From an uncultured Nitrososphaerales archaeon (GTDB taxonomy: Archaea > Thermoproteota > Nitrososphaeria > Nitrososphaerales > Nitrososphaeraceae), in contig CAVOHZ010000003.1 of assembly GCA_963695855.1 (NCBI GenBank), positions 32,001 to 96,000 on the forward strand: a stretch of 64,000 nucleotides of DNA, read 5' to 3'. This document shows, in pieces, positions 43,498 to 61,852 of this stretch. The position numbers and the translations under genes were made by a program. Under the pieces are notes generated by a model. The model worked only from the letters and a program-made list of their open reading frames with translations, searched no databases and had not been told where the DNA came from. Within the stretch, counting starts at the first letter, position 1; every line of letters starts with the position of its first letter.

Positions 43498-43969
43498 AAA
43501 TAATGCAAAAGATTTCTTATAATTTAAAATAAAACATTCCCAAGATGTCTAGAACTTATACAATAAACAAAGTGTATCTACACAGAATGATTATGCGCTA
43601 GATACTATTACATTAGTTAATATACGCAGGTAACTTATGTACAATTATATCACCAAAAGAGGAAAAAAATACAACTAAATTTAGGACAGACAACACCTTT
43701 TATTATTTAGAAATATATTTTAAAATTAATTTCTGCATTGAATCTAACTTTAAATATTATGCTTTAAATTAACTATATACTATATAATTCATTTATATTA
43801 TTTAATTCTACTTTATGTTATGTCCTATATACACAAAAGCATCCGAAACAACGGATGGCCATACATAACATTTAAAAAATTAAATATTAATAAAATTCGC
43901 TCTAATAGAAAATATATCAATAATATTTAGGAATTAAAAAATAATGTAACAATATTGTTACATTATTTT

Positions 43970-44392
43970 CTATTCAACTAGATTTCCGCCGTGAATTTTT
44001 AATAATCTTTGTAGAATCTCAGCAGCAATATATCCTTTAACAGTTTGTTTGAGATCAAGACCCGATAATTCTTGGACAATTGTAGCAAATTTTGGATGTT
44101 TTGCCTTGATTTCTGATGCTTTTGCCTTGATTTCTTCTTCTGTCATATATTCCTCTAACGGTGAACGACTCTGACCAGTTCTTTTTTCCTCAACTAGATT
44201 TCTGGCATGTGATTTTAGTATTCTCTGTAAAACTCCCGCTACAAAATAAGCTCTGAAAGTTTCTTTCAGATCAAGATCAGGAATTTCTTCAACAATTGTA
44301 GCATACTTTGGATGATTTGTTTTAAATTCTGATGCTTTTGACTTAAATTCTTCTCTTGTCATTCTAATATCTTCTAAAATGGTTGTCATCAT
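43970..44392 (-). CDS. Hypothetical protein made of two ~58-aa tandem repeats
   Basis: MTREEFKSKASEFKTNHPKYATIVEEIPDLDLK... / MTEEEIKAKASEIKAKHPKFATIVQELSGLDLK... Confidence 0.8.
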   Translation of the reverse strand: MMTTILEDIRMTREEFKSKASEFKTNHPKYATIVEEIPDLDLKETFRAYFVAGVLQRILKSHARNLVEEKRTGQSRSPLEEYMTEEEIKAKASEIKAKHPKFATIVQELSGLDLKQTVKGYIAAEILQRLLKIHGGNLVE

Positions 44393-45185
44393 AATGTGTA
44401 TATAATAATGGATATATAACTATTTGTATCTCTGGAATAGATATATTTATATATATTGAAGAATCGAAGAAACATATTGCATAGTATTGCAAAACATTAC
44501 AATATATGTCAATAACAAAGTATTAAATTTACAAATCTATACTTGCATACGATTTTATATAACCCAATTAAAATACTATTATTCATATATTTAGCTAATC
44601 TGAATGACTTTAGTAATACTATGTGAGGTATAAACCGACCCTGGCGAAGAATGGTAATCAGGCATTAATACAACACAAAAAAGTTCTCCATTCTTGAACA
44701 CTTAAATAGCTGTAATGGCATATTATAGTACCACTAAAATCTCTATAGCGTATTTTTGCGGCACTAACCTTAATCAATCTGATGCGGAGAGAAAAAAAGA
44801 AGTATATAACATTAACCTATGGAGAATCTTTATGCCCATTTGGTGGATTACTTAATACATTTGTCTCCTAGATGACTAGATGTTGTCTCCTTTTTTTAAT
44901 ATATTTGAACGGATTTAAAGAAACATTAAATGGACCAACACCTACTGCGCCTCCAATATTAATTTCTCTTGCTGTACTTTCAGTTGATGCAACTTCGCCA
45001 ATTATTAAATCATACCCACAAACACGACAAAAGGATACTAAATTCACATGAAGAAGTATAACAGTAAATCTAAAAAAATTTAAGTTTAATAATTTTTGTG
45101 ATAATACATACCGAACTTAAGGAAGCATTATTTGAATAATTCAATTATTGTTTGAAAATCCAAAGAGGTGGGCCATAGAATACTT

Positions 45186-45231
45186 CGGGTCCGTCGGGAG
45201 TAATACCGATAGCGATGTGAAAATAAGAGTC
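45186..45231 (-). repeat. Second tRNA-Arg-like 3' end + motif A (copy 3)
   Basis: CGGGTCCGTCGGGA + GTAATACCGATAGCGATGTGAAAATAAGAGTC. Confidence 0.85.
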
Positions 45232-45282
45232 TTCTGTTAAGTAAATAAAATAATATTTATGAATTCTTTTATGATAGTATAC

Positions 45283-46233
45283 TTATCTTAACAATTTGTT
45301 TGAAATAAATTCATGTAATTGTGAATCAGACATATTCTTTTTTGCTTGTGCAAAGGTTTTAGCATCTTCTCCTACTGTATATCTGAACAAATATTCTGAA
45401 GAATTTGAAATATTTTTAATTGCTTCAAGTATTACAGTAGCAACTTCTTTTGGTGATGGAGCATTATTCATAGCAGAATAATAATGAGATAGAAATGTAT
45501 CGATAGTATTGGAATAATATGAAGAATTATTTTTCTTAGTATCATTATTAGAATAATTAACTTTTAGTTCTTCTTTCTGTTCATCTTTCAATAGAGGTTC
45601 TTGTAATTTATTGTCAATTTGATTTGGAAATTTAATATTTGGTACAAAATTAGTATTGATAACACCTGGTTCAATAAGGATTACTTTAATTCCATATGGC
45701 TGAAGCTCATAGGATATAGAGTCACTTAATCCTTCTAATGCAAATTTTGTACTTACATATATGCATTCTGCAGGTATTCCTACTACGCCTGCAAGAGAAG
45801 TTACATTTATGATTATCCCATTTTTTTGTTTTCTCATAGCGGGCAAAGTTTCTTTAATAGTTCTCATTGCTCCAAAGAGATTTGTTTCGAACTGTTTCTT
45901 TGCTTCGTCTATAGATATCTCTTCCAAAGCACCAAATAAACCATATCCGGCATTATTTATCAAAATGTCAATTTTCTTTTTTTCATCAAGTATTTTGTGT
46001 ATCGCATTTCTTACTGAATCATCATTATCAACATCCATGGATAAAACTTTTAAAGGAAGATTCTCATTATTTGCAATTTTTTCGATTTTATCTCCCTTAA
46101 GTGTATCTCGCATTGTAGCATATGTATAAAACCCATTTCTTGCAAGAAATAATGAAGTTTCAAATCCTATTCCAGTTGAACTACCGGTAACTACTGCAAT
46201 ACTCTGTTGTTTTTCCATTCTAATCTTAGGCAA
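45283..46233 (-). CDS. Short-chain dehydrogenase/reductase
   Basis: VTGSSTGIG, NNAG, YVSTK, EPG. Confidence 0.92.
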   Translation of the reverse strand: MPKIRMEKQQSIAVVTGSSTGIGFETSLFLARNGFYTYATMRDTLKGDKIEKIANNENLPLKVLSMDVDNDDSVRNAIHKILDEKKKIDILINNAGYGLFGALEEISIDEAKKQFETNLFGAMRTIKETLPAMRKQKNGIIINVTSLAGVVGIPAECIYVSTKFALEGLSDSISYELQPYGIKVILIEPGVINTNFVPNIKFPNQIDNKLQEPLLKDEQKEELKVNYSNNDTKKNNSSYYSNTIDTFLSHYYSAMNNAPSPKEVATVILEAIKNISNSSEYLFRYTVGEDAKTFAQAKKNMSDSQLHEFISNKLLR

Positions 46234-46442
46234 TTACAAAATATACAAAAATATAATTCTATAGTTGACTATTACAATAGATTTATGGTAATTATTGTTA
46301 TTTTTTAAAAATAGTTCAAATTTATTATTAGTAGCAATTAAACGCACTATGTATCTTGACTTTAATCTTTTAATTCTTCTAAATATTTCATAATACTATA
46401 ATCGTGTTCCACCTTAATAGTATGGTTCATCCACATATTCAT

Positions 46443-46522
46443 GTAGTTCATCGGGAGTTAGAATCTGCACGTAGTAAGGTTCTACAACATTGTATTTAGC
46501 TTTTATTATGAGAAACTTAATT
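46443..46522 (-). repeat. Degenerate tRNA 3'-like fragment + motif B (paralog of 38497-38576)
   Basis: CATCGGGA.TTAGAATCTGCACGTAGTAAGGTTC...TTTAGCTTTTATTATGAGAAACTTAATT. Confidence 0.75.
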
Positions 46523-46566
46523 TTAATTATTTTTCAATTATTCACAAAGTATAGGAACTTGAAATG

Positions 46567-46611
46567 TGCCGCGGAGGAGGTAATACCGATAGAGGTGCAA
46601 AAATACGAGTC
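46567..46611 (-). repeat. tRNA (GCCGCGG acceptor, Met/Phe-like) 3' end + motif A (copy 4)
   Basis: TGCCGCGGAGGAG (reverse complement CTCCT CCGCGGC A) + GTAATACCGATAGAGGTGCAAAAATACGAGTC. Confidence 0.8.
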
Positions 46612-46783
46612 GAATAAGGAGGATAATATTTATGATTATTTATAATTGAGTTATTTGAAATATTAATAATTCAAAATTCATAGATAATATTAATTAAGAT
46701 TTATGGAAAATATACAAGAAGAAGAAACTAAAAAGACTAAAATTGAAAGTGAATAATATTAATTTAGAAATTGAATTAATATG

Positions 46784-48400
46784 TTAATCTGCAATTGGCA
46801 ATGTAAATCTAAATGTTGCCCCCTTACCATCCAAATTATTTTCTGCCCAAATTTTACCACTATATGCTTCTATAATATTCTTACAAATATATAGTCCCAA
46901 TCCTGTTCCTGTACTAGAATCGCCAGTTGTAAACTTTGAAAATAATTTGGGTAATACTTCTTTTGAAATACCCGCTCCAGTATCCTTAACACTTACAATG
47001 GCTTGTTCTATTCCTTCTTCTTTTTTCATTTTATCTACAATAACAAATATTGTTTGATTGTTATACTTAGTAGTAAATTTTATAGCGTTATCTACAAGAT
47101 TGCGAATTACTTGAGCTAATCTATCTCTATCTGATTCTACAATAATATCATTAACATATTTGAAATCATAACAAATTTTTATCGTTTGTTGTTTTAATTC
47201 CTTTTTCACATATTCCTTTAAAACTTCAGATATCAAAACATTAAGATTTAATTTTTCTTTTTTAAGCATTAAAGATTGACCTTCTATTTTTGTAACATCC
47301 AACAGGTTGTCACTAAGCCGTTTTAGTCTGTATGCATTTCTCATAATAATGTCTAACAATTCATGTTGTTCTTTATCTTTAACCTTTGAATAGATAATAT
47401 CTGTTAATCCTAGTATAGGCTGAATAGGAGTTCTCAATTCATGTGCAGCTATATTAATAAATTCTGACTTCATTATTTCAGATTCCTTTACTTTTTCATA
47501 TTGTTGGCTAAGCATCTCATTGCTTTCTCTTAATTTAATATTATAGTGAATACTTGATAAGGCTAATCCAATAATATTGATAAAATAACTTGAATCTTTT
47601 AAGACATGAGCAATATTATGTGCAGTGTCAAAGTGTTGTGACGAGTATGACATTATTATTTGTGCAAAAACGTCGAATACGAGGGAAATAACTATGCTAA
47701 TATAGAGAACATCTCTATTTTTATAAATTCTATTCTTATAGAAATAATATAAGGAAAATAATAATAATGCTAATGGAAAAAGTTCATAAGGTCTATGTAT
47801 AGGAATATTGTCAATCACAGAAAAAGGAAAAATAACATAAAGTGAGCTTATAGTTACAATAGAAACAAATAAAGTAATTGCTATTAAGTAAAGTAAAATC
47901 GGTTTTGATAATATACTTTCATTATTCTGGTGAGAGAATACTTGTTGTCCTTGTTGTTTTTGTTGTTGTTTACTTGAATTAACAGATAAAAAAGAATTAT
48001 ATTTAAAAATTGCTATAGCAAACATTGCACTAAGAAATAATCTTCCAGCAAACCAAGTCTGTGGAATAAAATATTTCAAGAATAAAATATTATCCATATT
48101 GAGCAAAGAAATTGTAACATGTAACAAATCAATTAAAGCATTAACTAGAAAACCAATGCCAATGAATAGACTAAATTTATCATCAAATGCAAGAGCTCTA
48201 GAAATATAATAGAATGCAAGTATTCCAGCAAAAATTGTTCCAAATAGTTCTATATAAAAATGATGTATAGGTGATGACACCCATAAATATGGGTTGGCAG
48301 ATATCACAGCAATTACTGAAAGAGAAATTGAAGGAATTAAAATATATTTTAATATATGACTCGTCTTATCATTAGTCTTTAAAAGTAAATTTAGTGGCAA
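46784..48400 (-). CDS. Membrane sensor histidine kinase with MASE3-like multi-TM input domain
   Basis: H..IELF, GFL..ALIDLLH, PQTWFAGR in the TM region; AAHELRTP, NLVDNAIKF, DTGAGI, GTGLGL. Confidence 0.9.
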   Translation of the reverse strand: MPLNLLLKTNDKTSHILKYILIPSISLSVIAVISANPYLWVSSPIHHFYIELFGTIFAGILAFYYISRALAFDDKFSLFIGIGFLVNALIDLLHVTISLLNMDNILFLKYFIPQTWFAGRLFLSAMFAIAIFKYNSFLSVNSSKQQQKQQGQQVFSHQNNESILSKPILLYLIAITLFVSIVTISSLYVIFPFSVIDNIPIHRPYELFPLALLLFSLYYFYKNRIYKNRDVLYISIVISLVFDVFAQIIMSYSSQHFDTAHNIAHVLKDSSYFINIIGLALSSIHYNIKLRESNEMLSQQYEKVKESEIMKSEFINIAAHELRTPIQPILGLTDIIYSKVKDKEQHELLDIIMRNAYRLKRLSDNLLDVTKIEGQSLMLKKEKLNLNVLISEVLKEYVKKELKQQTIKICYDFKYVNDIIVESDRDRLAQVIRNLVDNAIKFTTKYNNQTIFVIVDKMKKEEGIEQAIVSVKDTGAGISKEVLPKLFSKFTTGDSSTGTGLGLYICKNIIEAYSGKIWAENNLDGKGATFRFTLPIAD

Positions 48401-48507
48401 TAGATTAATCTATTCCTTTATATTTTTGTTAATATATTTATATGAACGAAAAAAATAGACATGGAGTTAATTATTAATATATTATTCAATACTGAATGCA
48501 ATTTTTA

Positions 48508-49676
48508 TTAATTTAATAATCTATTTACAGTATTTGTAAATAGCTTTCTATCAACAGGCTTTCTCATTATTTGTTCTTTTGATATACCAGGAACTACACT
48601 CAACAATTCGTCTAATATATCCAAAGCTGTTACAAACATAATCTTAATTGTTGGGTCTATAGCTTTTATTTGCTGATGTAATTGAATTCCATTCAAATCT
48701 TTCATTTTGATATCAAGTATTAATAATAAATCATTAAAATTTGAGAGGTCTTTGATATAATTCAATGCATTAGAAGGGTCTGTAAAAGAAATTATTTCAT
48801 AACCATTATCCTTTAAAAATGATTCAAAAGTAAAAAGTATATCCGGTTCATCATCAACTAAAATGATTCTTCTTTTGTTTTGTTATTGTTATTGTTATTG
48901 TTATTGTTATTGTTATTGTTATTGTTTTTTTTATGAAAAAAAGATGATTCTTTTTCTTTACTTTTAGTTTCTATAAAATCCTCAACAGGGGAACAGAACA
49001 ATTTCTTGCTAAAAGAAGAATTTATAGTACTAATATCATCAATCGACAATGATTTGTTAACTTTTTTTATACTGTATGTAGAGTATCTAAATTTTTCATT
49101 TATCTTATATTCACCATTATTTATAAAATTATAATTGTTAGCAATATTAGAAAAAGATTTTAATATCCTATAACAATTGTCTCCAATAATTATCTCATTA
49201 GGAATAGACAGTGAAGAAGAATTAATCTCTGAACAAATATTTATAGTTGAACCAAATAAATCTATCTGGCTATAATCACCAACTAAAGCTAAATCTAGAA
49301 GACCATAATCCATACTAATTCTATAGCTAAATGGGGGAAGATGCTGCTTGGACAATTCTTGATTAACAACATATCGCTCATCTAAGATTTTCAACCCGCA
49401 TTCAATCACTTCTCTAAAAGCGTTTTCGTTTTTAGTATCAGATGCCTTTGGAAAATAGAATAATAAACAATCACCAATATTTTTAATAACTTTCCCACCA
49501 TAATTTTTAACTATTTCTGATATTGAATTTATAAATTTAGAATAATAGATTCTAATATGTTCTGAATTGTCTATGGTAATTGTATTTTGAGTAGAATCTA
49601 CCAAATCAATAAAAACTACACAACTCTTTATTGAATCCCCTGAAAATCTTATTTGTTTTGAAGAAAAGTTTTTCAT
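48508..49676 (-). pseudogene. Adenylate cyclase-receiver paralog split by a 1-nt deletion at the end of a poly-Asn microsatellite
   Basis: Highly similar to 36114-37229; REC start RIILVDDEPD is in the neighbouring frame at ~48870. Confidence 0.85.
48878..48926. repeat. Hexamer microsatellite, about 7 AACAAT units on the minus strand (poly-Asn linker)
   Basis: TTATTG tandem run read directly. Confidence 0.9.
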
Positions 49677-49843
49677 TTACAGTTTTGCTCCTTAAAATTA
49701 TTAATTAAAAATGGAATTTATATTTTATTATTATTAGTATAAGGTATTAGATTTAATAAAATCTTTTTTTTCTTATCTTAAAATAATACCAACATTATTG
49801 GGCTAGGTTAAATATTAAAACCTAGTTAGTCGGTCTTCCATTG

Positions 49844-50470
49844 TTAATGACTAGTAGTAGTATTTCCCTCTTTATTTTGGCTATTGACTGATTGTACTAC
49901 TGATGTTATATAATCAGTATTTGTTTTTGTCAAAACCTTCACATTATCACGTGTTTGTTCAAGTGCTGTGTTATATACTTTCATATTTGATGCTAGAGTG
50001 TTATTTATAAGATTAGTGGCATTTAACAGGTAACTCGTAAAGTTATTTACCATTACCGCATTATTCTCAGCAATTCTTTGTGGATTAAAAAAATCCCATA
50101 ATCTATTGAAGTTTACATTACTATTATTATCTGCTTGTTGTGATTGAAAAGAGCTTACTACTTGTTTTTGTGCTTCAATAAAGTCAGAAGCAATATCTTT
50201 TACAGTTTGGATAGTTTTTTCTTGATATTCAGCAATACGTTGTGTATATTTTGGAATTTCCCGACTAGCTTCATCTGTACTTCTTTTTATATTATGTAGA
50301 GTGTTATCTAGAGTCTTGTTTATTGCATCTTGTTGTTGATTTAAGGTGTTATTTGTTCTTTCATTGAAATTATTATTGTCTTTGTTAAATTTAGTTGTAT
50401 TTTTTTCATTAAATTCTGGTTCATTTACAGCTATATTTTCGTTTATTTTTACTTCTTTTTTTGCTGACAT
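49844..50470 (-). CDS. Phasin-like family protein (copy 6), upstream of the second cyclase
   Basis: DEASREIPKYTQRIAEYQE.TIQT.KDIASDFIEAQK; start set at ATG 50470 by alignment with copy 7. Confidence 0.65.
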   Translation of the reverse strand: MSAKKEVKINENIAVNEPEFNEKNTTKFNKDNNNFNERTNNTLNQQQDAINKTLDNTLHNIKRSTDEASREIPKYTQRIAEYQEKTIQTVKDIASDFIEAQKQVVSSFQSQQADNNSNVNFNRLWDFFNPQRIAENNAVMVNNFTSYLLNATNLINNTLASNMKVYNTALEQTRDNVKVLTKTNTDYITSVVQSVNSQNKEGNTTTSH

Positions 50471-50742
50471 AATTATAGTTACATTACTAATGTTATATAA
50501 ACTCATGTAATGATGTCTTTTTAATAGTCATATTTACATAGGTATATATAATTTATTTATTTATTTATATAATTGAAGGTAATATAATTTATAATACAGC
50601 AATAAAAAGCAGAATCATGTAATTCTTACTATTTGATTCATACGATTCAGACATCTTATAAATTTAATAATTCATGATAAAACGCTGGTAGGTAAGTAAG
50701 TATTGATATTGATATAAAAGATGAAATATGTCTAGCATGGAC

Positions 50743-50773
50743 TAATGCTTATAGTGGTACTAAAATAAGAGTC
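50743..50773. repeat. Motif A copy 5 (degenerate)
   Basis: TAATGCTTATAGTGGTACTAAAATAAGAGTC, 26/31 match to the consensus. Confidence 0.75.
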
Positions 50774-50903
50774 TAAGGTATGGTAATAAAGAAGATAATA
50801 CCTAGGATTTACTTTTCATATTTTTAAAATAGATATTAATGTACAGTTACTATAAAAATTAATATTGTGTATGTTTTTCAGTATGTCGAAAAATATTAAA
50901 TTA

Positions 50904-51170
50904 TTAGTCATTTTTGATGGTAGTAGTAGCTTGTAATAATTCGCCCATTTCATTATGCATTTTGAGATAGTTTAGTCCTTTTTCTGTAGTCTTGAATGTT
51001 TGAGTCACATCAAGATATTCTATTAGATTGTTTTCTGTCAAAACAGAAAGATATTCCTTTAATTGTGCATAACTTAGAAAAGCTTTGTACATAATTTTTG
51101 TCTTTGTTGCTCTTCCATTTGCAGCGTCCAGTATATTACCCACTATTTCCGTTCTACTTCTATATTTCAT
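50904..51170 (-). CDS. Small archaeal winged-helix regulator
   Basis: YRSRTEIV..IL..A...TKTKIMYKAFLSYAQLKEYL..L.E..LI; TTEKG. Confidence 0.9.
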   Translation of the reverse strand: MKYRSRTEIVGNILDAANGRATKTKIMYKAFLSYAQLKEYLSVLTENNLIEYLDVTQTFKTTEKGLNYLKMHNEMGELLQATTTIKND

Positions 51171-51269
51171 ATTATTATAAGGTTATTTAATTATTTTAGT
51201 TTAATATCACAGTCAAAGGTAAGATAATTATAGTACAAACATTCTAAATATTATTTGCAAATAAAGAAA

Positions 51270-51531
51270 ATATATAAGAAAAGCTAATGCCTTAGCACTC
51301 AATAAAAATGAAGAGGCTTTACCACTTATTGAAAAAGCGCTTGAATCCGATTCAAATAATGAATAATATCTCACAACGACTGTCTTTACAATGTACAATC
51401 TAAAAAAATATGATGATGCCAGATCATATTTTGAAAAAGCATTAAAAATAAATAGTAATTTAACTTCAATTTTGTCTGAAAAAGAATTAAAGACATTTAA
51501 TGAATTGATGAATAATAATACAAAACAATAA
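51270..51531 (+). pseudogene. TPR protein C-terminal fragment
   Basis: EEALPLIEKALESD..*..KKYDDARSYFEKALKIN with an internal stop and no start. Confidence 0.6.
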
Positions 51532-51820
51532 GGAGTTAAATTTATTTAAATACTAGAAATTTTCTAATGTAAACCTCTCTATTTTAGTAACATTTCGAAA
51601 ATTGTATTGATTCTAATTATATTTTAATAAATTGAGAATTCTATTCTATCTATTACATAAAAAAATATCTGTTCTCAAATTAAATCAAAAGATTTTCTAG
51701 AATTACATTATTAGATAAACGTGAAATTATGTAACAATTAAAATAAAATAATTATCAATTCCTTATTATAAAGATAATACTAATAATAGCTATATGATAT
51801 ATATAGTATATAGTTTTTTT

Positions 51821-51883
51821 CTGACTATTTTGACAGTTTATTTGACTGATTTGACAATTATTCTGACTTAACTGACTCATGTT
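51821..51883 (+). promoter_or_regulatory. Three 21-bp direct repeats, each with two TGAC cores, just upstream of a TATA-like box
   Basis: TGAC at 51822, 51831, 51843, 51852, 51864, 51873 (spacing 9/12/9/12/9); TTTTAAT at 51882; ATG at 51910. Confidence 0.65.
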
Positions 51884-51909
51884 TTAATGTATAAAAGTAA
51901 AATAATGAT

Positions 51910-53317
51910 ATGCCCAGAATTATATCTCCCAATGAGAAGTCATCTGTAATTGGAGATTGGCTTGAAGGAAAAACCAGGGAAAAAATTGCTTTAAAACATA
52001 ATATTGAAAGTGGAACTGTTTATAATATTGTTCAAGAATGGAGCAATAAACTTGGTATTGAAAAAACAGATTTATTGAGAGAATTAGCGGTAAATTTAAA
52101 CAAAAATGGATTGACTGTAAATGATTGTGCTAAAGGATTTAGAATGGTGATGATTTTTAAAAAATATAGAATAAAAGAAGATGAACTAGAAGATGGAATT
52201 ACTTATTTTTTAAAGGAAATTTACTTGAAATGTCAAGAACACAATTTAACAATTGAAAAAGTCTTTATGTATATTTATGATATCGTTAATTTTTCGAATG
52301 AACTACCATTATCTCAAATACCTCAATTTCTTAAAGAGAAGAAAAAGGAAAAAGAAGAATTAGAGATTTCTATCCAAAATTTGTATCAAAAAATAAATGA
52401 ACTCGAAGAAACTCAAAAAGAAAAAAGGCAAGAAATACAAAGATTGTCTGAAATTACAAACAAATTGTCCAGTAGTTATAGATTATTTACCATATTAAAA
52501 TACAGATTGGGCCAATATGGTATAAGTATGGAAAATTTAGATCAATTTGCAAATTGTGTAGTTGGAATATCAAAGGAAAATTATAGTGTTACCAAAGTTC
52601 TAGAATTAATAGGAGATTATGATAATTTACTAAACTATATACAACTTTATAAAAATGAAGTAGAAGTAAAGAGAAATGAATTGAATTTATTGAATCAAGA
52701 GATAAACTCTCATAAAGGATTGCTAGATTCTTATAGGATCAAATCAGATATCGCCGAAAATTTGGAAAGAATGAATTTTGGGATCAATGAATTACGGGTT
52801 TTATATGATACTTTGATGGAAATTGGTAGAGAAAACAATACTGAAAATAAAACTTTTGAACAAATAAAAAAAATTCTTTGATGATCTCAAAAGTTATGAT
52901 GAAATACTAGGATCACGAAATGAAAAAGATAGGTTAAAAAATGAAATTAAAAATTTAGAAATACAGTTAATAAAAGAAAAAGAAAGATATAATTCATATC
53001 CAAAAGTGATGAAGAGCATAGAAAGATTATCACATGCAGGAATTTCTGAAAATGATATTTTAACAATAGATAAACTTGTATCGATGAGTGGTACAAATCA
53101 TTATCGTCTGTACAAGGATAAACGTAGAAATAAACAAAATTTGATTGATGATTTACAAAAATATGAAAATTTAAAGTTAGCCATAAAAAATCTTGAAGAT
53201 AAAAGAAAGAAAATAAATTCAAAAGATGGGAAAAAGACAGGATATCAAGAACAATTACATCAGAAACAAAAAAGAAAGAACAAATCATCGAAAGTTAAAG
53301 ATACAATTGAAGAATAA
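51910..53317 (+). pseudogene. N-terminal HTH + long coiled-coil protein, frameshifted at the A-tract ~52866-52873
   Basis: WLEGKTREKIA.KHNI.SGTVYNIV HTH; reading continues as FFDDLKSYDE... into ORF 53006-53317. Confidence 0.7.
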
Positions 53318-53397
53318 AATAAGTATTTGTTATCTCTTTCTTATTTTATAAAAATTAAACAATTTCTTTTGATATAAAAATTTTCATATTTTTCAGA

Positions 53398-53800
53398 TTA
53401 ACAAATATTAATCCCAAAATTGTTCCAAGCATTTGTATATTTTTCTGCTAACTTTTCTGGATCATGTAATACATAATGTCTTCCACTAACTGAACTAAAT
53501 CTTCCAGCAAGTACTTCGGCCTCATCAACATTTAATGTATCTCTGAACCGCATTACATTATAATGAATTTTTCTTAATACTATATATGTAACACTAGTTT
53601 CTCTTTTTAGGATTTTATATGTCTTATGGAGGTGACATAATTAAATCTTTGCATTCATTGCTTTATTATGTTTTTTATTCATTAACATCATTGGTATATT
53701 GTCTATTTCATTAGCTTATGTAATTTTACCTTGTAATATATTTTCTGAATAACCATTATGTTGTAAAAATATCTCTACCGCTTAACAAAAGTCAGTTTAC
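53398..53800 (-). pseudogene. SSV1-like tyrosine integrase C-terminal remnant
   Basis: LRKIHYNVMRF...DEAEVLAGRFSSVSGRHY...KYTNAW: RK..., GR and RHY catalytic pattern. Confidence 0.65.
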
Positions 53801-54117
53801 AGATTATTTATACTAAAATGTTTTTTTTGTTAAGATCTTGATTTTCTAGATTCCCAAAAAATATCTGAAGTTAATTCAAGCGATATCCTTTTTACTCTAT
53901 GAATTAGATTAAATTCTCCTGTTTGTAATTCTATTTGATTATGTGGTTCCTATCGAATTTCGAAGTATTTTCATCATGCAAATAAACTGGCAATCCATGT
54001 TTGTAAATACAACAATTACCCACGTAAACAAGCACAATTGGTGTCTATACTTTTAAATAATAACAGGAGTAAATTCATATACTTTCAACACAAATATTTT
54101 TCAAATATCTGATTGAT

Positions 54118-55536
54118 TTGGCTAATGGACTAGATATCTTTATTTCATATAAGCGCGGAGAAGGGGATAATGCGGCCAGAGAGATAGAGAATTACCTTAC
54201 TCACAAAAAAAATTATTCAGTATTTAGAGATGTTGACAGGATAGATGGAGAAGAAGACTGGAAGCAGAAAATTATAAGATCAATAAAAAAATCAGATATT
54301 TTCATACTAGTATTAACTCCTTTTGCTTTATCAAGTGTAGAAGTACAGAAGGAGGTAAGAGAGGCCCAGAGATGGAAAAAAAGAATTCTTCCATGCAAAC
54401 TAGATACTATACATATCGAGGAACTGAAATGGAATCTGGGAAAATTAACTATAATCGAGTATTCTGAAAGAAATATTTCTGCTCTCTTGCTATCCATCGA
54501 TAATTCAATCGACACTTTTTTATCTGAAAAAAGAAAACAGTTAGTAAAAAAAGGAATCTCGACAGCTCTATCGATAGTAGCAATAGGATTGGTTACGTAT
54601 ATTTTACTGGGTTATTTTTTAAATCCACAAATAGAGATCAGTTACGAGTCTAATCTTAATATTATAATAGGAACAGATTATGCCCAAATGTTTGTAAATC
54701 TTTCCAGACCTTTTGGTATATCAGTAGATACCTTAGATAACGTGTATGTCGCTGACACCGGAAACAATAGAATTCAAAAGTTTACATCTGATGGTAACTT
54801 TATTAAAAAATGGGGAAGACTTGGTACAGATCCAGGTAAATTCTCCAGACCTAACGGTATAGCAGTAGATACCTCAGGTAACGTGTATGTCGCTGACACC
54901 GACAACAATAGAATTCAAAAGTTTACATCTGATGGTAACTTTATTAAAAAATGGGGCGGAGAGGGTACAGATCCAGGCAAATTCTCCTTTCCTAACGGTA
55001 TATCAGTAGATACCTCAGGTAACGTGTATGTCGCTGACACCTACAACAACAGAATTGAAAAGTTTACATCTGATGGTAACTTTATTAAAAAATGGGGAAG
55101 ACTTGGTACAGATCCAGGCAAATTCTCCAGACCTTCCGGTATAGCAGTAGATACCTCAGGTAACGTGTATGTCGCTGACACCGGGAACAATAGAATTGAA
55201 AAGTTTACATCTGATGGTAACTTTATTAAAAAATGGGGAGAACTTGGTAAAGACATATTTGAATTCTCCTTTCCTTCCGATATAGCAGTAGATACCTCAG
55301 GTAACGTGTATGTTGCAGACACCGACAACAATAGAATTCAAAAGTTTACATCTGATGGTAACTTTATTAAAAAATGGGGCGGAGAGGGTACAGATCTAGA
55401 CAAATTCTCAGGTCCTTCCGGTATATCAGTAGATACCTCAGGTAACGTGTATGTCGCTGACACCTACAACAACAGAATTGAAAAGTTTGCATCTGATGCG
55501 ATATCTATACGTAATAACATCATTGATAGACCTTAA
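54118..55536 (+). CDS. TIR domain - transmembrane helix - 6x NHL repeat protein
   Basis: DIFISY, VFRD, SDIFILVLTP..LSS.EVQKE (TIR with the catalytic-position Glu); KRKQLVKK then a TM helix; six 47-aa NHL repeats. Confidence 0.92.
   Translation: MANGLDIFISYKRGEGDNAAREIENYLTHKKNYSVFRDVDRIDGEEDWKQKIIRSIKKSDIFILVLTPFALSSVEVQKEVREAQRWKKRILPCKLDTIHIEELKWNLGKLTIIEYSERNISALLLSIDNSIDTFLSEKRKQLVKKGISTALSIVAIGLVTYILLGYFLNPQIEISYESNLNIIIGTDYAQMFVNLSRPFGISVDTLDNVYVADTGNNRIQKFTSDGNFIKKWGRLGTDPGKFSRPNGIAVDTSGNVYVADTDNNRIQKFTSDGNFIKKWGGEGTDPGKFSFPNGISVDTSGNVYVADTYNNRIEKFTSDGNFIKKWGRLGTDPGKFSRPSGIAVDTSGNVYVADTGNNRIEKFTSDGNFIKKWGELGKDIFEFSFPSDIAVDTSGNVYVADTDNNRIQKFTSDGNFIKKWGGEGTDLDKFSGPSGISVDTSGNVYVADTYNNRIEKFASDAISIRNNIIDRP
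54700..55500 (+). repeat. Six near-identical 141-bp intragenic tandem repeats
   Basis: Units start at 54700, 54841, 54982, 55123, 55264, 55405 (last one partial). Confidence 0.95.
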
Positions 55537-55605
55537 CAGATACTTTATAATCTCTAGACTGAATCTTGTAGTTCTGTAATAACTATACTGCCTAACATAA
55601 TTTCG

Positions 55606-56220
55606 CTAATCTATTGTTCTCATTAGATATTTTACAATATTCAGATTGAATCTTGTTGTTCTGTAATAACAACAAATATTGTATTTTAGATCGTCAAACA
55701 TAGGATAATAAGTAGAAAGTATATGATACTTACCCTGTCTCCAGCATTCTTCTACTGCATTAAACTCCGGTGAACCAACAGGAAAGTATTCCAATCTGAT
55801 GGTATTTTTATTTATTTGAATCAAGAAATCGTCTTGTAATCTTTGAACAGTGAGGTGTTGCTCTATCCACAACAATTACAATTTTACCAAATGTTTCTTT
55901 CTGTACATGTTTTAGGCAGTCAACAAATGTACTGCTATTAAATTTATCATATTGTTTGAATAATTGTTTACCATCTAAAGATAAACAACCAAATACAATT
56001 GTTCTTTTACGAGAACCAGTTACTATAAGCACAGGTCTTTTTCCTTTTGAGATCCATTTCTTTCTTTTAACTACATAATCGTATACAAATATTGATTCAT
56101 CCTGTACAAGTACAGTCCAATCAGAATTTAGATTCTCAAGAATCTGTTTTATTCTTTTTTGAATTTCATTTTGTCCTTGCATGATACAGTATTTACAAAT
56201 CTTTTCTGCGGTACTTTAGA
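55606..56220 (-). mobile_element. IS630-family transposase remnant (frameshifted)
   Basis: VQDESIF, VDRATPH, PVGSPEFNAVEECW in adjacent frames. Confidence 0.85.
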
Positions 56221-56583
56221 CTTGAATCCATACACTTGGCTTAAATCTAAAATTTGCTTTTATTTATTCTAAAAATAGGAGTAAAAATCCCTCGCAACCC
56301 AACGGACCAGTACTTTTCTCGGGTTCATCCACTTCAATTCTTTTTTATCTATGATCTGTCTCGCTGTCTCTAAAGTGATTCTGCCCTTGATACTGACTTC
56401 TTGGAGTATCCAAATGATAATGATAATATCTAATGAAATGACTTAGAAAATATTGATGAATATATGTAATTGCTAATATATTACCTTCAATTATACAAAT
56501 AAATAGATCATACATACAGAAATATGACTATCCAATGGACATCAGTACATACGTTTGTATATCTTAGTAACGTATATATAATC

Positions 56584-57189
56584 ATGTCAACAAAAGAAGA
56601 AATAAAAAGAAATGAAAATATAGCTGTAAATGAACTAGAATTTAATGAAAAAAATACAACTAAATTTAACAAAGACAACAAGAATTTCAATGAAAGAACA
56701 AATAGAGACTACAATAATACCTTAAATCAACAACAAGATGTAATAAACAAGACACTTGACAACACCTTACATAATATAAAGAGAGCTACTGATGAAGCTA
56801 CACGAGAAATTCCAAAATACACACAACGTATAGCTGAATATCAAGAACAAACTATTCAAACTATAAAAGATATTGCCTCTGACTTTATTGAAGCAGAAAA
56901 AGAAGTAATAAACTCTTTTCAATCACAAGTAGAAAGAAATAGTGGTGTAAACTCCACCGGATTATGGGACTTTTATAATCCACAGAAAATTGTTGAAAAT
57001 CACGCAGTACTGGTGAATAACTTTACAAGTTACCTGTTAAATACCAGCAATCTCATAAATAACGCTCTAGCATCAAATATGAGAGTGTATAAAACAGCAC
57101 TTGAACAAACACGTGAGAATATAAAAGCTTTGGTAAGAACAAATACCAGTTACATAAAATCAGTAGGAGAATCAGTTAATAGACAATGA
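56584..57189 (+). CDS. Phasin-like family protein (copy 7), inverted recent duplicate of copy 6
   Basis: Near-identical protein to 49844-50470; upstream and downstream non-coding flanks also align. Confidence 0.65.
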   Translation: MSTKEEIKRNENIAVNELEFNEKNTTKFNKDNKNFNERTNRDYNNTLNQQQDVINKTLDNTLHNIKRATDEATREIPKYTQRIAEYQEQTIQTIKDIASDFIEAEKEVINSFQSQVERNSGVNSTGLWDFYNPQKIVENHAVLVNNFTSYLLNTSNLINNALASNMRVYKTALEQTRENIKALVRTNTSYIKSVGESVNRQ

Positions 57190-57327
57190 TTTAGAAATAA
57201 TACCAGTAACTAAAAATCTACTAGGTTTTAATATATAACCTAGTCTAATAATCTTTGGTATTTTTTTTAAATTATATTATTATTAATATTTATTTTATTT
57301 TATAAGCAAATTAATAATTATTACTTA

Positions 57328-58243
57328 GAGCCTATCCCAAAAATAGATAGGAATATAGCTCATTGATTTCTTTATCATATCTAATAATGTTTGAGTAAGA
57401 ATAAAAAGTATGGTAGAACAATTATACGTATTGCAGGCGATCTGTGGAATGAAATTAAAAATATTTTACCTGTTGAAAAACCAGACAATACAATAGGTCG
57501 TCCAATTGTTCCATATCGAAAAGTATTTGATGGCATCATGTTTATCCTGAGAACTGGATGTCAGTGGAAATTGTTACCCAAAGACTATGGTTCTGGTTCA
57601 ACATGTCACAGAAGATTTCAGGAATGGAGGCAATCAGGTATCTTTGATAAATTATGCATCAGATTACTAAAATTATATGATGACAAGAAGGGAATTAAGT
57701 GGAACTGGCAATCACTTGACAGCATCTCGATAAAATCACCTTTAGGGGGGGCATTGACAGGTCATAATCCTACTGATAGAAGCAAATTAGGAACCAAAAG
57801 ACATATTTTAACAGATAAAGAAGGAATTCCCCTTTCCACTGTTATAACATCTGCAAATACTCACGATGTTACCGCTGTCATTGATACAGTTAACAGCATG
57901 GTTATCAAAAGACCGTTTTCAAAATCAACAACAAAATACAGAAACAAGAACAAGAAGAAAAAACAGAATCTATGTCTTGATAAAGCATATCATTCCAAAG
58001 AAGTAGAACAAGAAGTTATCAAAAGAGGATACATTCCACATATACGACATAGAAGACAAGAAAAGAAACTCAACAAGAACCATCCTGCAAGAAGATGGGT
58101 GGTAGAGGAGAGAACAAATTGATGACATAACAGATTCAGAAAGTTATTTACAAGATATGAAAAGAAGGATGAGAACTATCTCGGTCTTGTACAATTGGCT
58201 AATAGCATAATTGTTTATAGGAGGTTAATTTTGGGATAGGCTT
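57328..58243 (+). mobile_element. IS5-family element (IS1031-like), 916 bp, transposase damaged near the C-terminus
   Basis: IRs (G/A)AGCCTATCCCAAAA; TTA duplicated on both sides; LRTGCQW, TCHRRFQEW, GTKRH, DKAY, RRWVVE followed by a frameshift and stops. Confidence 0.92.
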
Positions 58244-58299
58244 TTAATATATTTTCACAGATAAGGTAAACGTAATACAATTTTTATCTTTGACAGTTC

Positions 58300-59148
58300 T
58301 CATAGCTTATTTTTAACTTTTGGTTTTATCTTCAAGGTTGGGATTAAAAAACAGATCAAAGAATGGTAGACCACCAGAAATACCACAAGAGATAGTACAC
58401 GAGATAAAAAATGAACTATCTTCCAGCAAACAAGGTGGACTACAAAACAGGTAGAAGATCTGATTGTGAACAAGAGTGGTGGAATCAGATATCATTATAC
58501 ACATATATACAGACTCATGCACAAGTGGGGATTCAAGCAGAAGGTACCAAGAAAGGTACATGTTAATACAGCATCAAAAGAAGAGAAAGAAAATTTTAAA
58601 AAACAGCCAGAACGATTCTGGATAATCTAAAAGATGAATTTACTGCTGTATCGCTTGATGAATGATTCTTTTTCTATGATTCACTTGTAAGAAGAAGAGT
58701 ATGGATAAGAAAAGATGAAAGACCAGTCGTAAAAATTACAGGATCCCATCAGGGATCAGTTCTATTTGGTGCCACAAGTTTAGAAGGAAAAAAGTTATTC
58801 AGACAGTATGACTGGTTTGATGAAAATACCTTTTTACATTACCTAAAACAGATACACAGAAAGTTTCCAAAATGTTATCTGTTTCTTGATAAGGCAAAAC
58901 AGCATTACAGATCAAAAAAGGTACTGAGATATTTTGCTGTCAATAAAGATAGTTTGATTCCAGTTTATCTTCCAACAGCATCTTCTGAATTTATGGTACT
59001 GGAAGAGATATGGCATATAGCCAAGAATGATCTGCTTGTTCTACAATACTATTCATCATTTACAGATTTTAAAAATAAAATATCCACATATTTTAGAACA
59101 AAAAGATTCAATCTGGATATGAGGAATTACTTAGTTGGAGGGGAGTAA
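58300..59148 (+). mobile_element. IS630-family transposase remnant
   Basis: GRPP, HKWGFKQKVPRK, SLDE*FF, FLDKAKQH, LPTASSEFMVLEEIW fragments with stops. Confidence 0.85.
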
Positions 59149-59159
59149 GCATACTTATC

Positions 59160-59468
59160 CTAATTGGTATTGTAAAATATGTCTGAACTAGTTGATCCTA
59201 ACTGGTCGTCATCTTTTTGTTTTCTCTTGGTTTTAAGATATCTTAAAATTATTTCACTACTTTTGATATCTGAGAATTTAACTTGATTTTCTGAATCTGA
59301 ATCTAAGTAATTCGCGAAGGAAAGCATCACTTTTAGATTGTTATTTAGATGACGTTCGGACACTTCACAGGATTTCATGAATTCATGATAGTTTCTTACA
59401 AGTAATTGGTTCTCCTTATTTGATATTCAGTCTATTTTTTTTACAGTTGTAGATAGGTTTACTGGCAT
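59160..59468 (-). pseudogene. Tyrosine integrase N-terminal remnant adjacent to tRNA
   Basis: MPVNLSTTVKKI*..FMK....SERHLNNNLK....FA..L; resembles Nitrososphaerales integrase N-termini as recalled; truncated next to IS630. Confidence 0.65.
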
Positions 59469-59568
59469 ACTAGTTTTTCCCTCTCCTTTTTCTGGTTGTC
59501 TGAGTTGATATCACAACTACTACTGTCTATTTTATTGTACGAATTAGTATTTAATCCCAATTGGTCAG

Positions 59569-59642
59569 TGGGCCTAAAGGGGTTTGAACCCTTGACCTAC
59601 CGGTTATGAGCCGGTCGCTCTGCCAGGCTAAGCTATAGGCCC
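59569..59642 (-). tRNA. tRNA with CAT anticodon, probably tRNA-Ile2
   Basis: GGGCCTATAGCTTAGCCTGGCAGAGCGACCGGCTCATAACCGGTAGGTCAAGGGTTCAAACCCCTTTAGGCCCA folds as a cloverleaf; the GGGCC acceptor fits Ile2 rather than initiator Met. Confidence 0.9.
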
Positions 59643-61834: not shown

Positions 61835-61852
61835 TAGTTTCTCCCCAATTAC

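Follow-up and report, generated by a model that had tools for sequence, protein, structure and literature searches.

The 64,000-nucleotide stretch of DNA analysed here (the window) comes from a soil ammonia-oxidiser-type archaeon. It contains a gene, hereafter the TIR-TM-NHL gene, in which all 472 codons are open. The gene starts with TTG, whereas its orthologues start at the identical position with Met. The gene and its parts are organized as follows:

54118..55536, + strand: whole TIR-TM-NHL gene, 472 aa, TTG start; TIR, juxtamembrane/TM helix, six-bladed NHL propeller
54136..54465, + strand: TIR_2 domain, residues 7-116 (Pfam 3.6e-15)
54352..54354, + strand: codon of Glu79, the equivalent of the catalytic Glu, aligned with SARM1
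54475..54621, + strand: predicted continuous helix, residues 120-168 (AF2 secondary structure, hydropathy and K/R bias)
residues 137-146, + strand: basic patch EKRKQLVKK, within helix 120-168
54565-54621, + strand: membrane segment, residues 150-168, a single hydrophobic segment (Kyte-Doolittle 2.23)
54655..54669, + strand: N-terminal "velcro" strand, residues 180-184, predicted fourth strand of blade 6 (AF2)
54700..55536, + strand: six NHL units of 141 nt (47 aa) each, starting at 54700, 54841, 54982, 55123, 55264 and 55405, the last truncated into the C-terminus (repeat family D1)

The TIR domain matches the Pfam model TIR_2 (PF13676) with 57 bits against a cut-off of 28, and with 60.5 bits in the genome-level search. 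It is followed by six NHL stretches that score 208.8 bits against a cut-off of 20. The AF2 model, with a mean pLDDT of 90.4, has a TIR fold, the helix 120-168, the velcro strand, and six four-stranded blades, which reach a pLDDT of at least 93 over most of their length. In the model, blade 6 itself contributes only three strands. The predicted propeller is a closed six-bladed NHL propeller with Foldseek TM scores of 0.92-0.96 to solved NHL domains, including those of Thin (E 5e-38, TM 0.92) and TRIM71 (TM 0.95); the match to the PknD ectodomain 1rwi has an E value of 1.9e-20 and a TM of 0.79. The domain order of the original prediction, in which a TIR and a basic patch precede one TM helix and a propeller, is borne out by the Pfam matches, hydropathy, and AF2, and the receptor-like architecture is well supported.

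Predicted topology and receptor analogues

The helix is flanked by five Lys and Arg residues on its N-side and none on its C-side. The same bias is common to all 21 of the TIR-TM proteins compared, which have three to nine such residues on the N-side and zero to two on the C-side. According to the positive-inside rule, hydropathy and charge bias support a topology with the N-terminus inside, the TIR in the cytoplasm, and the propeller outside the cell, as had been proposed. The protein has no N-terminal signal sequence, because the TIR begins at residue 6. The propeller is predicted to lie about 25 residues from the membrane. Such a short tether would hold it near the membrane, probably beneath the S-layer, where the access of large particles would be limited. 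The TIR family also includes NHL fusions that have no membrane helix (P0149, P0196, and G103 L027), which means that such a propeller is not by its nature an external sensor.

The closest architectural analogue is PknD of Mycobacterium tuberculosis, a receptor Ser/Thr kinase that serves as a sensor kinase and has a "highly symmetric" extracellular NHL propeller (PDB 1rwi/1rwl). In PknD and, as predicted, in the archaeal protein, a cytoplasmic catalytic domain at the N-terminus is followed by one membrane helix and, outside the cell, by a C-terminal six-bladed NHL propeller whose blades closely resemble one another. However, the archaeal protein has a TIR output in place of the protein kinase, and its blades are more alike. 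The Pfam scan detected no kinase family in it, and only the helix and the NHL ectodomain correspond to those of PknD.

The original prediction also invoked Toll-like receptor logic, of which the logic alone holds. In animal Toll-like and IL-1 receptors, too, one helix connects a repeat or Ig-like ectodomain with a cytoplasmic TIR, which acts when the receptors cluster, and close relatives of the archaeal protein have Ig-like (Big_9, PKD) ectodomains, as do IL-1 receptors. In contrast to animal Toll-like receptors, which are type I proteins with leucine-rich repeats (LRR) and a C-terminal TIR, the archaeal protein is oriented the other way round, its TIR being at an intracellular N-terminus, and an NHL propeller takes the place of the LRR. 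By sequence, this TIR is closest to the enzymatic SARM1 type and not to the adaptor type. The comparison implies neither homology of the ectodomains nor descent.

A decayed mobile island

The gene is located in a segment bordered by a tRNA gene and containing remnants of mobile elements:

31811..59567, no strand: island of ~27.7 kb, absent from the collinear contig of a close relative (G106); holds the TIR-TM-NHL gene
34011..34037, + strand: copy of the tRNA-Met 3' end, 27 nt, 89% identity (~24/27), candidate distal attachment-site repeat (repeat family D17)
53401..53640, - strand: C-terminal remnant of an archaeal phage-type integrase, 80 codons
55606..56182, - strand: IS630-type (DDE_3) transposase, broken into two ORFs
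57391..58122, + strand: IS5-type transposase (DUF4096 + DDE_Tnp_1)
59568..59642, - strand: tRNA-Met gene, the 3' end of which is the right border of the island

The TIR-TM-NHL gene is an accessory gene on this strain-specific, integrated, decayed mobile island, and its predicted position beside an integrase remnant was confirmed. The remnant is 34.6% identical to an intact 395-aa open frame (G000:C1:76226-77410), which matches PF16795 with 30.5 bits (cut-off 27), and 66% identical to an adjacent integrase-like C1 frame with an internal stop. The ORF at 34348-35343, beside the distal tRNA repeat, was considered as an integrase and rejected, as neither Pfam, PADLOC, nor the PDB provides a match for it and it is not similar to the remnant. 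A neighbouring 455-aa gene is split into parts of 323 and 103 aa.

No known defence gene adjoins the TIR-TM-NHL gene. The PADLOC matches in the island are limited to generic cyclase-domain ones, and the TIR protein reaches no curated PADLOC system model. A conserved partner gene was found neither at its own locus nor at the related loci of G102, G114, G056, and G106. A Thoeris or other multi-gene TIR system was rejected: no effector neighbour is shared among these five loci, and the ThsB_TIR profile of Pfam scores 18.4 bits, under its cut-off of 21.2. The ThcB4 profile of NCBIfam, at 38.6, is also under its cut-off of 220. A link to Pycsar appears unlikely. Two cyclase-domain genes of the island match PycC profiles, but they are located in histidine-kinase and response-regulator modules, and Pfam detects no cyclic-nucleotide-binding domain in the TIR protein.

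Blade repeats and their variable codons

Tandem Repeats Finder (TRF) reports the array at 54703-55498 with a period of 141, 5.6 copies, 88% matches, and no indels, and also with a period of 423 and 91% matches. Units 1-5 differ pairwise in 10-23 of 141 nt, and unit 6 stays in register for ~90 nt before it turns into the C-terminus. The description of six 141-nt repeats was correct, but "almost identical" overstated their similarity, as the identity of units 1-5 is 84-93%. The mean blade identity of 0.84 contrasts with 0.32-0.57 in the 13 other NHL genes of the genome; for the gene at 3405-4556, previously singled out for its diverged repeats, the value is 0.41. In the comparison with orthologues the blade identity was computed as 0.81.

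With an internal identity of 0.81-0.84, the propeller exceeds the 60% that defines the highly repetitive beta-propellers of PMC9218822. Blade identity is 0.81 within each of two orthologues and 0.64 (maximum 0.70) between them, and such lineage-specific residues common to the blades of each orthologue are used in that paper as a sign of independent amplification or homogenisation. The protein differs from the propellers described there in being a TIR membrane protein and not a STAND NTPase; the word NHL does not occur in the main text of PMC9218822.

Twenty-seven of the 47 codons are identical across units 1-5, and five codons vary at all three positions. When the 33 variable columns were placed at random 100,000 times, at least five such codons were obtained with a frequency of 2e-5, in agreement with the claim that the differences are concentrated in few codons. 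All the residue sets that had been listed (FS[R/F/G]P..., ADT..., RI..., WG...) are present in the units, together with an additional variable tail (TDPGK / KDIFE / TDLDK). The variable codons 3, 5, 6, 40, 41, 43, and 45-47 belong to the D-A loop or to the entry to strand A, codon 21 to the B-C loop, and codons 8 and 26 to strands A and C, in their upper halves. Units 2-6 show no variation in the A-B and C-D loops. Judging from the strand and loop positions in the AF2 model and the fixed topology of propeller blades, the variable codons of the D-A and B-C loops should therefore lie on one face of the propeller, as anticipated. The orthologue P0010 varies at matching positions: eight are shared of the 12 and 13 variable positions of the two genes (hypergeometric P 0.0012). 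Two strain variants from metagenomes also fall at hypervariable codons. In one contig, codons 21 and 26 of unit 4 change from G to D and from E to Q, which are the states of units 2 and 5, and in another, codon 45 of unit 5 changes from L to R.

The scaffold codons are under purifying selection, with a pN of 0.015 and a pS of 0.115. The synonymous divergence of about 0.115 indicates that homogenisation has been neither very recent nor complete. The variable codons have a pN of 0.41 that exceeds the pS of 0.22, a comparison that is circular as the codon set was picked by its variability. Relaxed constraint on the loops could explain this excess as well as diversifying selection could.

The proposed recombination of alleles among the repeats was confirmed: thirteen of 36 informative codon pairs fail the four-gamete test, in conflict with a single tree. 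However, a large share of the "shuffled" pattern goes back to three blades that were duplicated in tandem as one unit. The states of codon 21 across the units are G, D, Y, G, D, Y, there is no incompatibility among codons 21-41, and only codons 3, 5, 8, and 26 need exchange between units. A diversity-generating retroelement was rejected as the source of the codon variation, as the 99.87%-complete genome has no RVT_1 match.

It is possible that the propeller is simply young, having grown from one blade and later from a three-blade unit by recent amplification, and that its loops drifted under relaxed constraint with no selection for diversity or shuffling. This explanation concerns the recombination-diversified ligand surface alone, not the receptor architecture. 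The better alignment at period 423 than at period 141 (91% against 88%), the clean history of R1~R4, R2=R5, and R3=R6 that fits codons 21-41, and the whole-unit pN/pS of 0.77 agree with it. The blades of a paralogous TIR-TM-NHL gene (G114) differ in only 1-14 of 138 nt, with block-like haplotypes and few differences, none of which is in the D-A loop; high blade identity can therefore be a mere consequence of recent amplification. The genome contains other high-identity coding tandem repeats, and propellers of many families have been amplified continuously from single blades, independently in close homologues (PMC9218822). However, drift of this kind does not readily account for the incompatible codon pairs, for the five fully replaced codons next to 27 identical ones, for the matching variation in the orthologue, or for the strain variants at codons 21, 26, and 45. 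Moreover, the pS of the scaffold shows that the units are not brand new, yet their scaffold protein sequence is fixed. We regard the young propeller as plausible, although short of probable.

Tandem 141-nt repeats are hard to assemble, none of the metagenome contigs spans the array, and the neighbourhood contains the broken IS630 transposase, integrase, and 455-aa gene. The orthologue P0010 is out of frame after five blades. The array could thus be an assembly artefact, or the gene could be decaying and non-functional. Such an origin is very improbable in view of the 472 open codons, which encode exactly six blades with a distinct velcro strand and C-terminus, as a closed propeller needs, the lack of indels in the TRF alignment, and the purifying selection on the scaffold. 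Sequence identical to parts of the TIR, of the helix, and of units 1-2, and to the junction of unit 6 with the 3' end, is present in the sequencing run X2. None of the sequencing runs contains at least half of the sampled words of the gene, and no RNA run with the gene is listed, which has no bearing either way on its expression.

The TIR family and a possible surface receptor

The EVQKE motif of the TIR contains two glutamates, E75 and E79. All 20 of the 20 family members compared have E79, which aligns with the Glu of the SARM1 "HKE", residue 642 in the full-length chain numbering (7knq_A), in line with the prediction of a Glu at the catalytic position. The conserved Glu is thus that of an enzymatic (NADase) TIR, and the NADase activity of TIRs from bacteria, archaea, and plants, like that of SARM1, has been reported to depend critically on this Glu (PMC7075850). 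The family profile matches SARM1 and TIR-1 structures at 1.8e-12, and these NAD+ hydrolases are the nearest solved relatives by sequence in the PDB. The Trp of the SARM1 "WVHKE", four residues before the Glu, corresponds to Glu75 here, so the active site differs from those of characterised NADases. An NADase output may be expected from these alignments.

Close relatives of the TIR-helix module, 63-77% identical in P0010, P0122, P0123, P0282, and G102, carry ectodomains of 5, 6, or 28 NHL blades or a Big_9 Ig-like domain, and the similarity stops where the membrane segment starts. More distant TIR-TM relatives have NHL, TPR, PKD, or cadherin-like domains. Within the genus, 10 of 25 genomes contain matches; the figures are 6 of 101 for the family and 5 of 301 for the class (searched at E<=1e-8), and G000 is included in every count. 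In-frame stops interrupt 8 of the 19 matching places of the genus. The scan of genome contigs returned the G102 contig as the only close relative. One scan of metagenome contigs found no close alleles, and another only two distant TIRs at 29-31%. Literature searches, with passages of papers as their scope, returned no description of a TIR-TM-NHL protein or of an externally sensing prokaryotic TIR receptor; supplementary tables may list such architectures.

The protein may have a surface or signalling function unrelated to defence, in which the propeller is itself an enzyme or has a ligand in the envelope, in the matrix, or among small molecules, and the TIR is an interaction scaffold or a regulator of NAD-linked metabolism. 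The Pfam models SGL, Vgb_lyase, and Arylesterase overlap the blades, and lactonases and lyases are known among NHL and SGL-type propellers. PknD is a sensor kinase and not an immune protein, 13 other NHL ORFs are present in the genome, and the gene has no defence genes next to it. According to PMC7075850, the commonest role of TIR domains is that of a signalling adaptor. However, the catalytic-position Glu is invariant across the family and the nearest solved relatives are NADases, not adaptors. The patchy distribution, frequent pseudogenes, and island location also speak against this function, and a single TIR-helix module on which unrelated ectodomains are exchanged is more in keeping with a repertoire of sensors than with a housekeeping function at the surface. 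We consider a non-defence role unlikely.

Fungal HET-e and NWD sensors have WD40 propellers with high-identity repeats, few variable positions on one face, and exchange between the repeats, all of which resemble the features of the archaeal propeller. The archaeal protein differs in its repeat family, in having no NACHT NTPase, and in its lower nucleotide identity (84-93%); positive selection and within-species polymorphism of repeat number, known from the fungal sensors, are at most candidate features of the archaeal one. By analogy with fungal incompatibility, the protein might recognise propellers of neighbouring cells or a polymorphic surface ligand, and a mismatch would lead to TIR-mediated arrest. 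The highly similar blades with variation on one face fit such kin or non-self recognition, as do the differences in blade number and ectodomain type among close relatives, and self-recognition is raised in PMC9218822 as one explanation of short-lived repetitive propellers. It is nevertheless quite improbable: no partner or ligand gene was found at the loci compared, and most genomes of the genus lack the gene, which therefore cannot be a general kin marker.

In the mechanism that we propose instead, the external propeller would serve as a ligand-binding sensor, with a variable face formed by the D-A and B-C loops, and the long helix would link the membrane to the intracellular SARM1-like TIR with its catalytic-position Glu. 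A multivalent or clustered external ligand, for which virus particles, the surfaces of foreign cells, and perturbations of the envelope are candidates, would gather several receptors, and the gathered TIR domains could pack into the oligomer that TIR enzymes need. Cleavage of NAD+ would then result in its depletion or in an ADP-ribose-derived signal, and in growth arrest or defence. The protein might work as a one-gene sensor-effector, because no partner gene is conserved alongside. The ectodomain evolves fast in three ways: blades are amplified singly or in groups, sequence is exchanged between them, and the entire ectodomain is replaced on the conserved TIR-helix module. The domain content, fold, topology signal, conserved Glu, repeat anatomy, family architecture, and island are observed, whereas ligand binding on the variable face, activation by clustering, the NADase output, and the role in defence are inferred, and we give the proposal as a whole an even chance of being correct.

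Fusion of a sensor to a TIR is a general design of prokaryotic TIR defence proteins; ThsB, TIR-APAZ, TIR-SAVED, and single-gene Escherichia coli systems have been named as enzymatic TIRs. To our knowledge, the known ones sense infection inside the cell. The archaeal protein shares the fusion design and differs in that its sensor is predicted to be outside the cell and that no ThsA-like effector gene adjoins it. Single-gene TIR defence systems, one of them with a TM segment, protected E. coli from phages (PMC11350192). The discussion of that paper notes that the membrane-receptor features of Toll-like receptors seem to be absent from bacterial TIR systems.

The locus is a compact natural example of the renewal of a binding surface, in which blade amplification, blade exchange, and replacement of the whole ectodomain occur side by side in close relatives. 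If the TIR is inactive or the propeller merely structural, it reduces to another recently amplified propeller on a mobile island. Tentatively, and as a somewhat unlikely extension, Nitrososphaerales may possess a family of outside-in innate immune receptors, in which an NHL, Ig-like, PKD, or TPR ectodomain is connected by one helix to a cytoplasmic TIR NADase. Such receptors would sense viruses or foreign cells at the surface, before or at entry, and would renew their specificity by exchange of ectodomain cassettes and by blade amplification and exchange, as a counterpart of Toll-like receptor logic reached independently. If true, a family with the sensor outside and the TIR inside would mean that surface sensing coupled to a TIR output exists in archaea, and it would offer a simple one-gene system for studying the activation of a TIR enzyme by a ligand bound on the other side of a membrane.

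TIR domain, membrane helix and propeller

The TIR gene is the following feature of the window:

54118-55536, plus strand: a single open reading frame, 472 codons long, that starts with TTG

At the position equivalent to this TTG, four orthologues have a Met start. The genome carrying the gene, G000, has 3.55 Mb in 11 contigs with a completeness of 99.87% and contains a full archaeal 16S rRNA gene. In Pfam, residues 7-116 match TIR_2 with 57 bits (cut-off 28) and six NHL repeats are recognised with 208.8 bits (cut-off 20). The protein qualifies as a member of the TIR_2 family, the NHL family and the highly repetitive propeller class. Among solved structures, the closest by sequence come from the NAD+ hydrolases SARM1 and C. 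elegans TIR-1, namely their TIR domains (2.6e-6 with the single sequence, 1.8e-12 with a profile of 20 family members). Glu79, which is unchanged in 20 of 20 family members, pairs in the profile alignment with the glutamate of the SARM1 motif WVHKE. This is residue 642, counted from the full-length chain 7knq_A (aligned positions 564-657), the catalytic residue of SARM1. The SARM1 tryptophan four residues upstream is Glu75 in the TIR protein. The motif EVQKE, in which a glutamate at the catalytic position had been noted, thus has two glutamates, and the alignment with SARM1 places the second, Glu79, at that position. [quoted passage not shown]

In the AlphaFold2 model (42-sequence alignment, mean pLDDT 90.4, pTM 0.63), residues 120-168 form a single unbroken helix, which includes the basic patch EKRKQLVKK and the sole hydrophobic segment of the protein (150-168, Kyte-Doolittle 2.23). 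Five lysines or arginines are present in the 15 residues before this segment and none in the 15 after it, and a bias of 3-9 before versus 0-2 after was found in all 21 family TIR-TM proteins examined. The TIR protein has no signal peptide. Because of the charge bias and the lack of a signal peptide, the positive-inside rule predicts that the TIR domain is cytoplasmic and the C-terminal domain external. The receptor architecture itself, consisting of TIR domain, helix and propeller, is very probably correct.

The helix is followed in the model by a low-confidence linker, a short strand (180-184) and six blades. Since blade 6 has just three strands of its own, strand 180-184 probably provides the usual "velcro" that closes a complete six-bladed ring. 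Foldseek matches the propeller to the solved NHL domain Thin (E 5e-38, TM 0.92), TRIM71 (TM 0.95), the extracellular domain of M. tuberculosis PknD (E 1.9e-20, TM 0.79), the designed Pizza6 proteins and Brat.

Variation among the blades

Tandem Repeats Finder (TRF) describes the array as 5.6 copies of 141 nt (88%, no indels) and also with a period of 423 nt (91%). Any two of units 1-5 show 10-23 differences in their 141 nt, and unit 6 keeps register for about 90 nt; the repeats are therefore very similar, but not almost identical in DNA as first described. The mean blade identity is 0.84, versus 0.32-0.57 in 13 other NHL ORFs of G000 and 0.41 in the NHL gene at 3405-4556, whose diverged blades had correctly been named as a contrast. 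The array is the only NHL array found by TRF across G000, where other high-identity coding repeats exist. Two tandem repeats of coding size are located at G000:C10:27844-30715 (333 nt, 8.6 copies, 99%) and G000:C10:988333-990763 (330 nt, 7.4 copies, 96%).

The 33 variable columns of units 1-5 are spread over 20 codons, and codons 3, 5, 21, 41 and 46 vary at all three positions. At least five fully variable codons occurred with a frequency of 2e-5 in 100,000 random placements of 33 columns, in agreement with the concentration of differences in a few codons that had been noted. The strands of a blade in the AlphaFold2 model are A (unit codons 4-9), B (15-19), C (24-28) and D (34-39), and the variable codons are positioned as follows:

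Codons 40-47 and 3: D-A loop
Codons 5 and 6: start of strand A
Codon 21: B-C loop
Codons 8 and 26: strands A and C, in the halves nearest the loops

The A-B and C-D loops do not vary among units 2-6. Every four-stranded meander blade has its D-A and B-C loops together on one face, opposite the A-B and C-D loops. Because the variable codons map to the D-A/B-C side and the blade topology is fixed, the variation is predicted, from the secondary structure of the model and the fold topology, to be on one face of the propeller.

The selection analysis covers six blades of one allele. Scaffold codons have pN 0.015 versus pS 0.115, the twelve variable codons pN 0.41 versus pS 0.22, and the whole unit a pN/pS of 0.77. 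The pN excess at the twelve codons, a set picked for its variability, is suggestive only. Plain recent amplification, with no selection for diversity, is a plausible if somewhat doubtful explanation of the repeats, and it concerns the repeat part of the protein only.

Across the units, codon 21 encodes G, D, Y, G, D, Y, and the period of three recurs in codons 40-41 and in the linked synonymous sites of codons 23 and 39. Since codons 21-41 are also mutually compatible, the main event in the history of the array was that a unit of three blades was duplicated. This history is crossed by codon 3 (R, R, F, R, F, G) and codon 5 (F, N, N, S, S, S), and in part by codons 8 and 26; of 36 informative codon pairs, 13 are incompatible in the four-gamete test. 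The conflicting states differ by two or three bases, and therefore probably arose by exchange between units rather than by repeated mutation. Recombination of alleles, as originally proposed, is thus retained for these pairs, whereas the main pattern is the three-blade duplication.

Parts of the stretch are present in 20 sequencing runs from ten studies, none of which reaches half of its sampled words. Four runs were compared: one soil run contains exact pieces of the TIR domain, helix, units 1-2 and 3' junction, others contain close variants of the TIR region, and none of the four has an array-spanning contig. A 171-nt contig with a tail unique to unit 4 has changes in codon 21 (GGG to GAC, G to D), codon 26 (E to Q) and, synonymously, codon 19; these three codons have the states of units 2 and 5. 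Another contig has L to R at codon 45 of unit 5. It is highly improbable that the array is an artefact or that the gene is decaying.

Relatives and genomic setting

A search of 5.8 billion proteins with the TIR protein returned mostly NHL proteins; P0010 (446 aa, 67% identical) and P0064 (690 aa) were the only other TIR carriers among the 120 matches listed. Residues 1-194 retrieved four proteins at E<=1e-8, including P0010 and P0282; in P0282 the TIR-helix part is 77% identical and the ectodomain is a Big_9 Ig-like domain. In alignments of NHL-type with Ig-type proteins, the similarity ends where the membrane segment begins. Genome G102, of the same genus, encodes a 1517-aa orthologue with a TIR-helix module 69% identical, and genome G114 a 519-aa protein of a paralogous lineage with like architecture (TIR 28% identical). 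Six blades of the TIR gene compare with five in P0010 (which ends out of frame), ten in P0064, 28 blade matches in G102 and seven in G114. Blades 2-6 of G114 differ at only 1-14 of 138 nt, outside the D-A loop.

Blade identity is 0.81 within the TIR protein and within P0010 and 0.64 between them; the best between-protein pair (0.70) is below the lowest within-protein pair (0.72), and same-index blades are no closer (0.66). This pattern bears the mark of independent amplification or homogenisation, which PMC9218822 describes in other propellers. Eight variable positions are common to the two proteins, out of 12 and 13 (P 0.0012).

P0131 (219 aa, metagenome) has a TIR N-terminus 67% identical over residues 1-80 and a P-loop NTPase-like sequence (GIGGVGKT) directly after the catalytic-position glutamate; it may be a recombinant or frameshifted gene. 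G000:C10:1417463-1418035 and G000:C5:13130-13567 (loci L022 and L024) are near-identical copies of one decayed fragment, which encodes a basic patch, a membrane helix and either one NHL blade or two that are almost the same. They share about 40% identity with residues 116-264/311 of the TIR protein, contain stops and have no TIR upstream.

When residues 1-194 were used in an exhaustive HMMER search, 2623 representatives matched at E<=1e-3. Among the best 150, 55 have at most 700 aa, and in 15 of these the N-terminal TIR is followed by a hydrophobic segment; the Pfam scan, which took in 30 of the best 150, assigned these 15 to NHL (4), Big_9/cadherin (1), PKD (1), TPR (1) and no further domain (8). 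The blade profile detected NHL in six of the best 150, two of them without a membrane segment. Family genomes add TIR-TM-cadherin-like, TIR-TM-NHL and TIR-TM-TPR proteins, a TIR with four TM helices and a helix-less TIR-NHL. The distribution is sparse: 10 of 25 genus and 6 of 101 family genomes have matches at E<=1e-3, and 5 of 301 class genomes at E<=1e-8, with G000 counted each time; stop codons occur within 8 of 19 matching places in the genus. In G106, the genome of a close relative, a TIR-TM-TPR protein (L026/L049, G106:C44:99361-100569) has external TPR repeats near-identical to each other; its neighbours are a gene for MAP3K_TRAF_bd / TPR-S sensor domains and one for a TPR protein of 905 aa.

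G106 is 95.6% identical to window 59569-64000 and, on the same contig, collinear with 20003-31810 at 82-91%. Window 31811-59568, the island that holds the TIR gene, is replaced there by about 0.86 kb, and pieces of it match G106 at scattered repeats only. Two tRNA-Met features were located:

59568-59642, minus strand: tRNA-Met, whose 3' end is the right border of the island
34011-34037: 27-nt copy of the tRNA-Met 3' end, 89% identity

The island contains IS1595-type and IS5-type transposases, and a broken IS630-type transposase directly 3' of the TIR gene. An 80-codon integrase remnant lies 480 bp upstream of the TIR gene on the opposite strand. An intact 395-aa open frame on contig C1 (Pfam "Archaeal phage integrase", 30.5 bits, cut-off 27) shares 34.6% identity with it, and a second, adjacent integrase-like C1 frame with an internal stop shares 66%. 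The placement of the gene in an island beside an integrase remnant is thereby confirmed.

Several other features were observed in the island. At 51910-53317, just upstream of the TIR gene, 323-aa and 103-aa ORFs represent a split 455-aa HTH/coiled-coil protein of no Pfam, PHROG or NCBIfam family. An intact 455-aa paralogue (G000:C3:240469-241837; L052 3470-4837), 69% identical in protein to the split copy, lies about 1.3 kb from the only other TIR gene of G000, which is truncated (115 aa), so that both TIR genes sit beside a copy. The 221-aa ORF at 56524-57189 has seven more copies (74-89% protein identity) and several weaker matches in G000, and just weak ZorA-profile and dynamin-like matches. 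A module duplicated at 36103-37229 and 48503-49676 (78-85% DNA identity) encodes a class III nucleotidyl cyclase domain and a receiver domain. Each copy gives a match to Pycsar PycC profiles (1e-13, 1.6e-11), and the second adjoins a MASE3 histidine kinase. An intergenic repeat of 59 nt, which has a conserved core and may be a regulatory site or miniature mobile element, occurs five times, always inside the island (35986-36044, 41642-41700, 45186-45244, 46566-46624, 50728-50786). The DUF899 gene at 32340-33098 lies in a stretch of 38% G+C (about 29% around it), between the G106 synteny break at ~31810 and the tRNA-end repeat at 34011, and this stretch may be a separate insertion.

No neighbours are common to the TIR gene and related loci, and no curated defence system was recognised in the island. 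A non-immune surface or signalling role of the protein is unlikely, and kin recognition more so.

Putative mode of action

The TIR gene could be assigned neither to Thoeris nor to the diversity-generating retroelements (DGRs). Literature searches and passages of PMC7075850, PMC11350192, PMC9218822, PMC7159879, PMC11514479 and preprint 10.64898/2025.12.03.692087 revealed no prokaryotic TIR protein in which the sensor domain is external; supplementary tables might list some. PMC11350192 reports a single-gene TIR-TM defence system and notes that bacterial TIR systems seem to lack TLR-like membrane features. The TIR protein resembles a Toll/IL-1 receptor turned around, but lacks the defining features of that family. 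It would work like PknD with the TIR replacing the kinase, but does not have the defining features of PknD.

The best-supported reading, to which we give an even chance, is a receptor and effector encoded by one gene. The external propeller would bind a ligand through its variable face, and the resulting clustering would be relayed through the rigid helix, so that the TIR domains may assemble and cleave NAD+.
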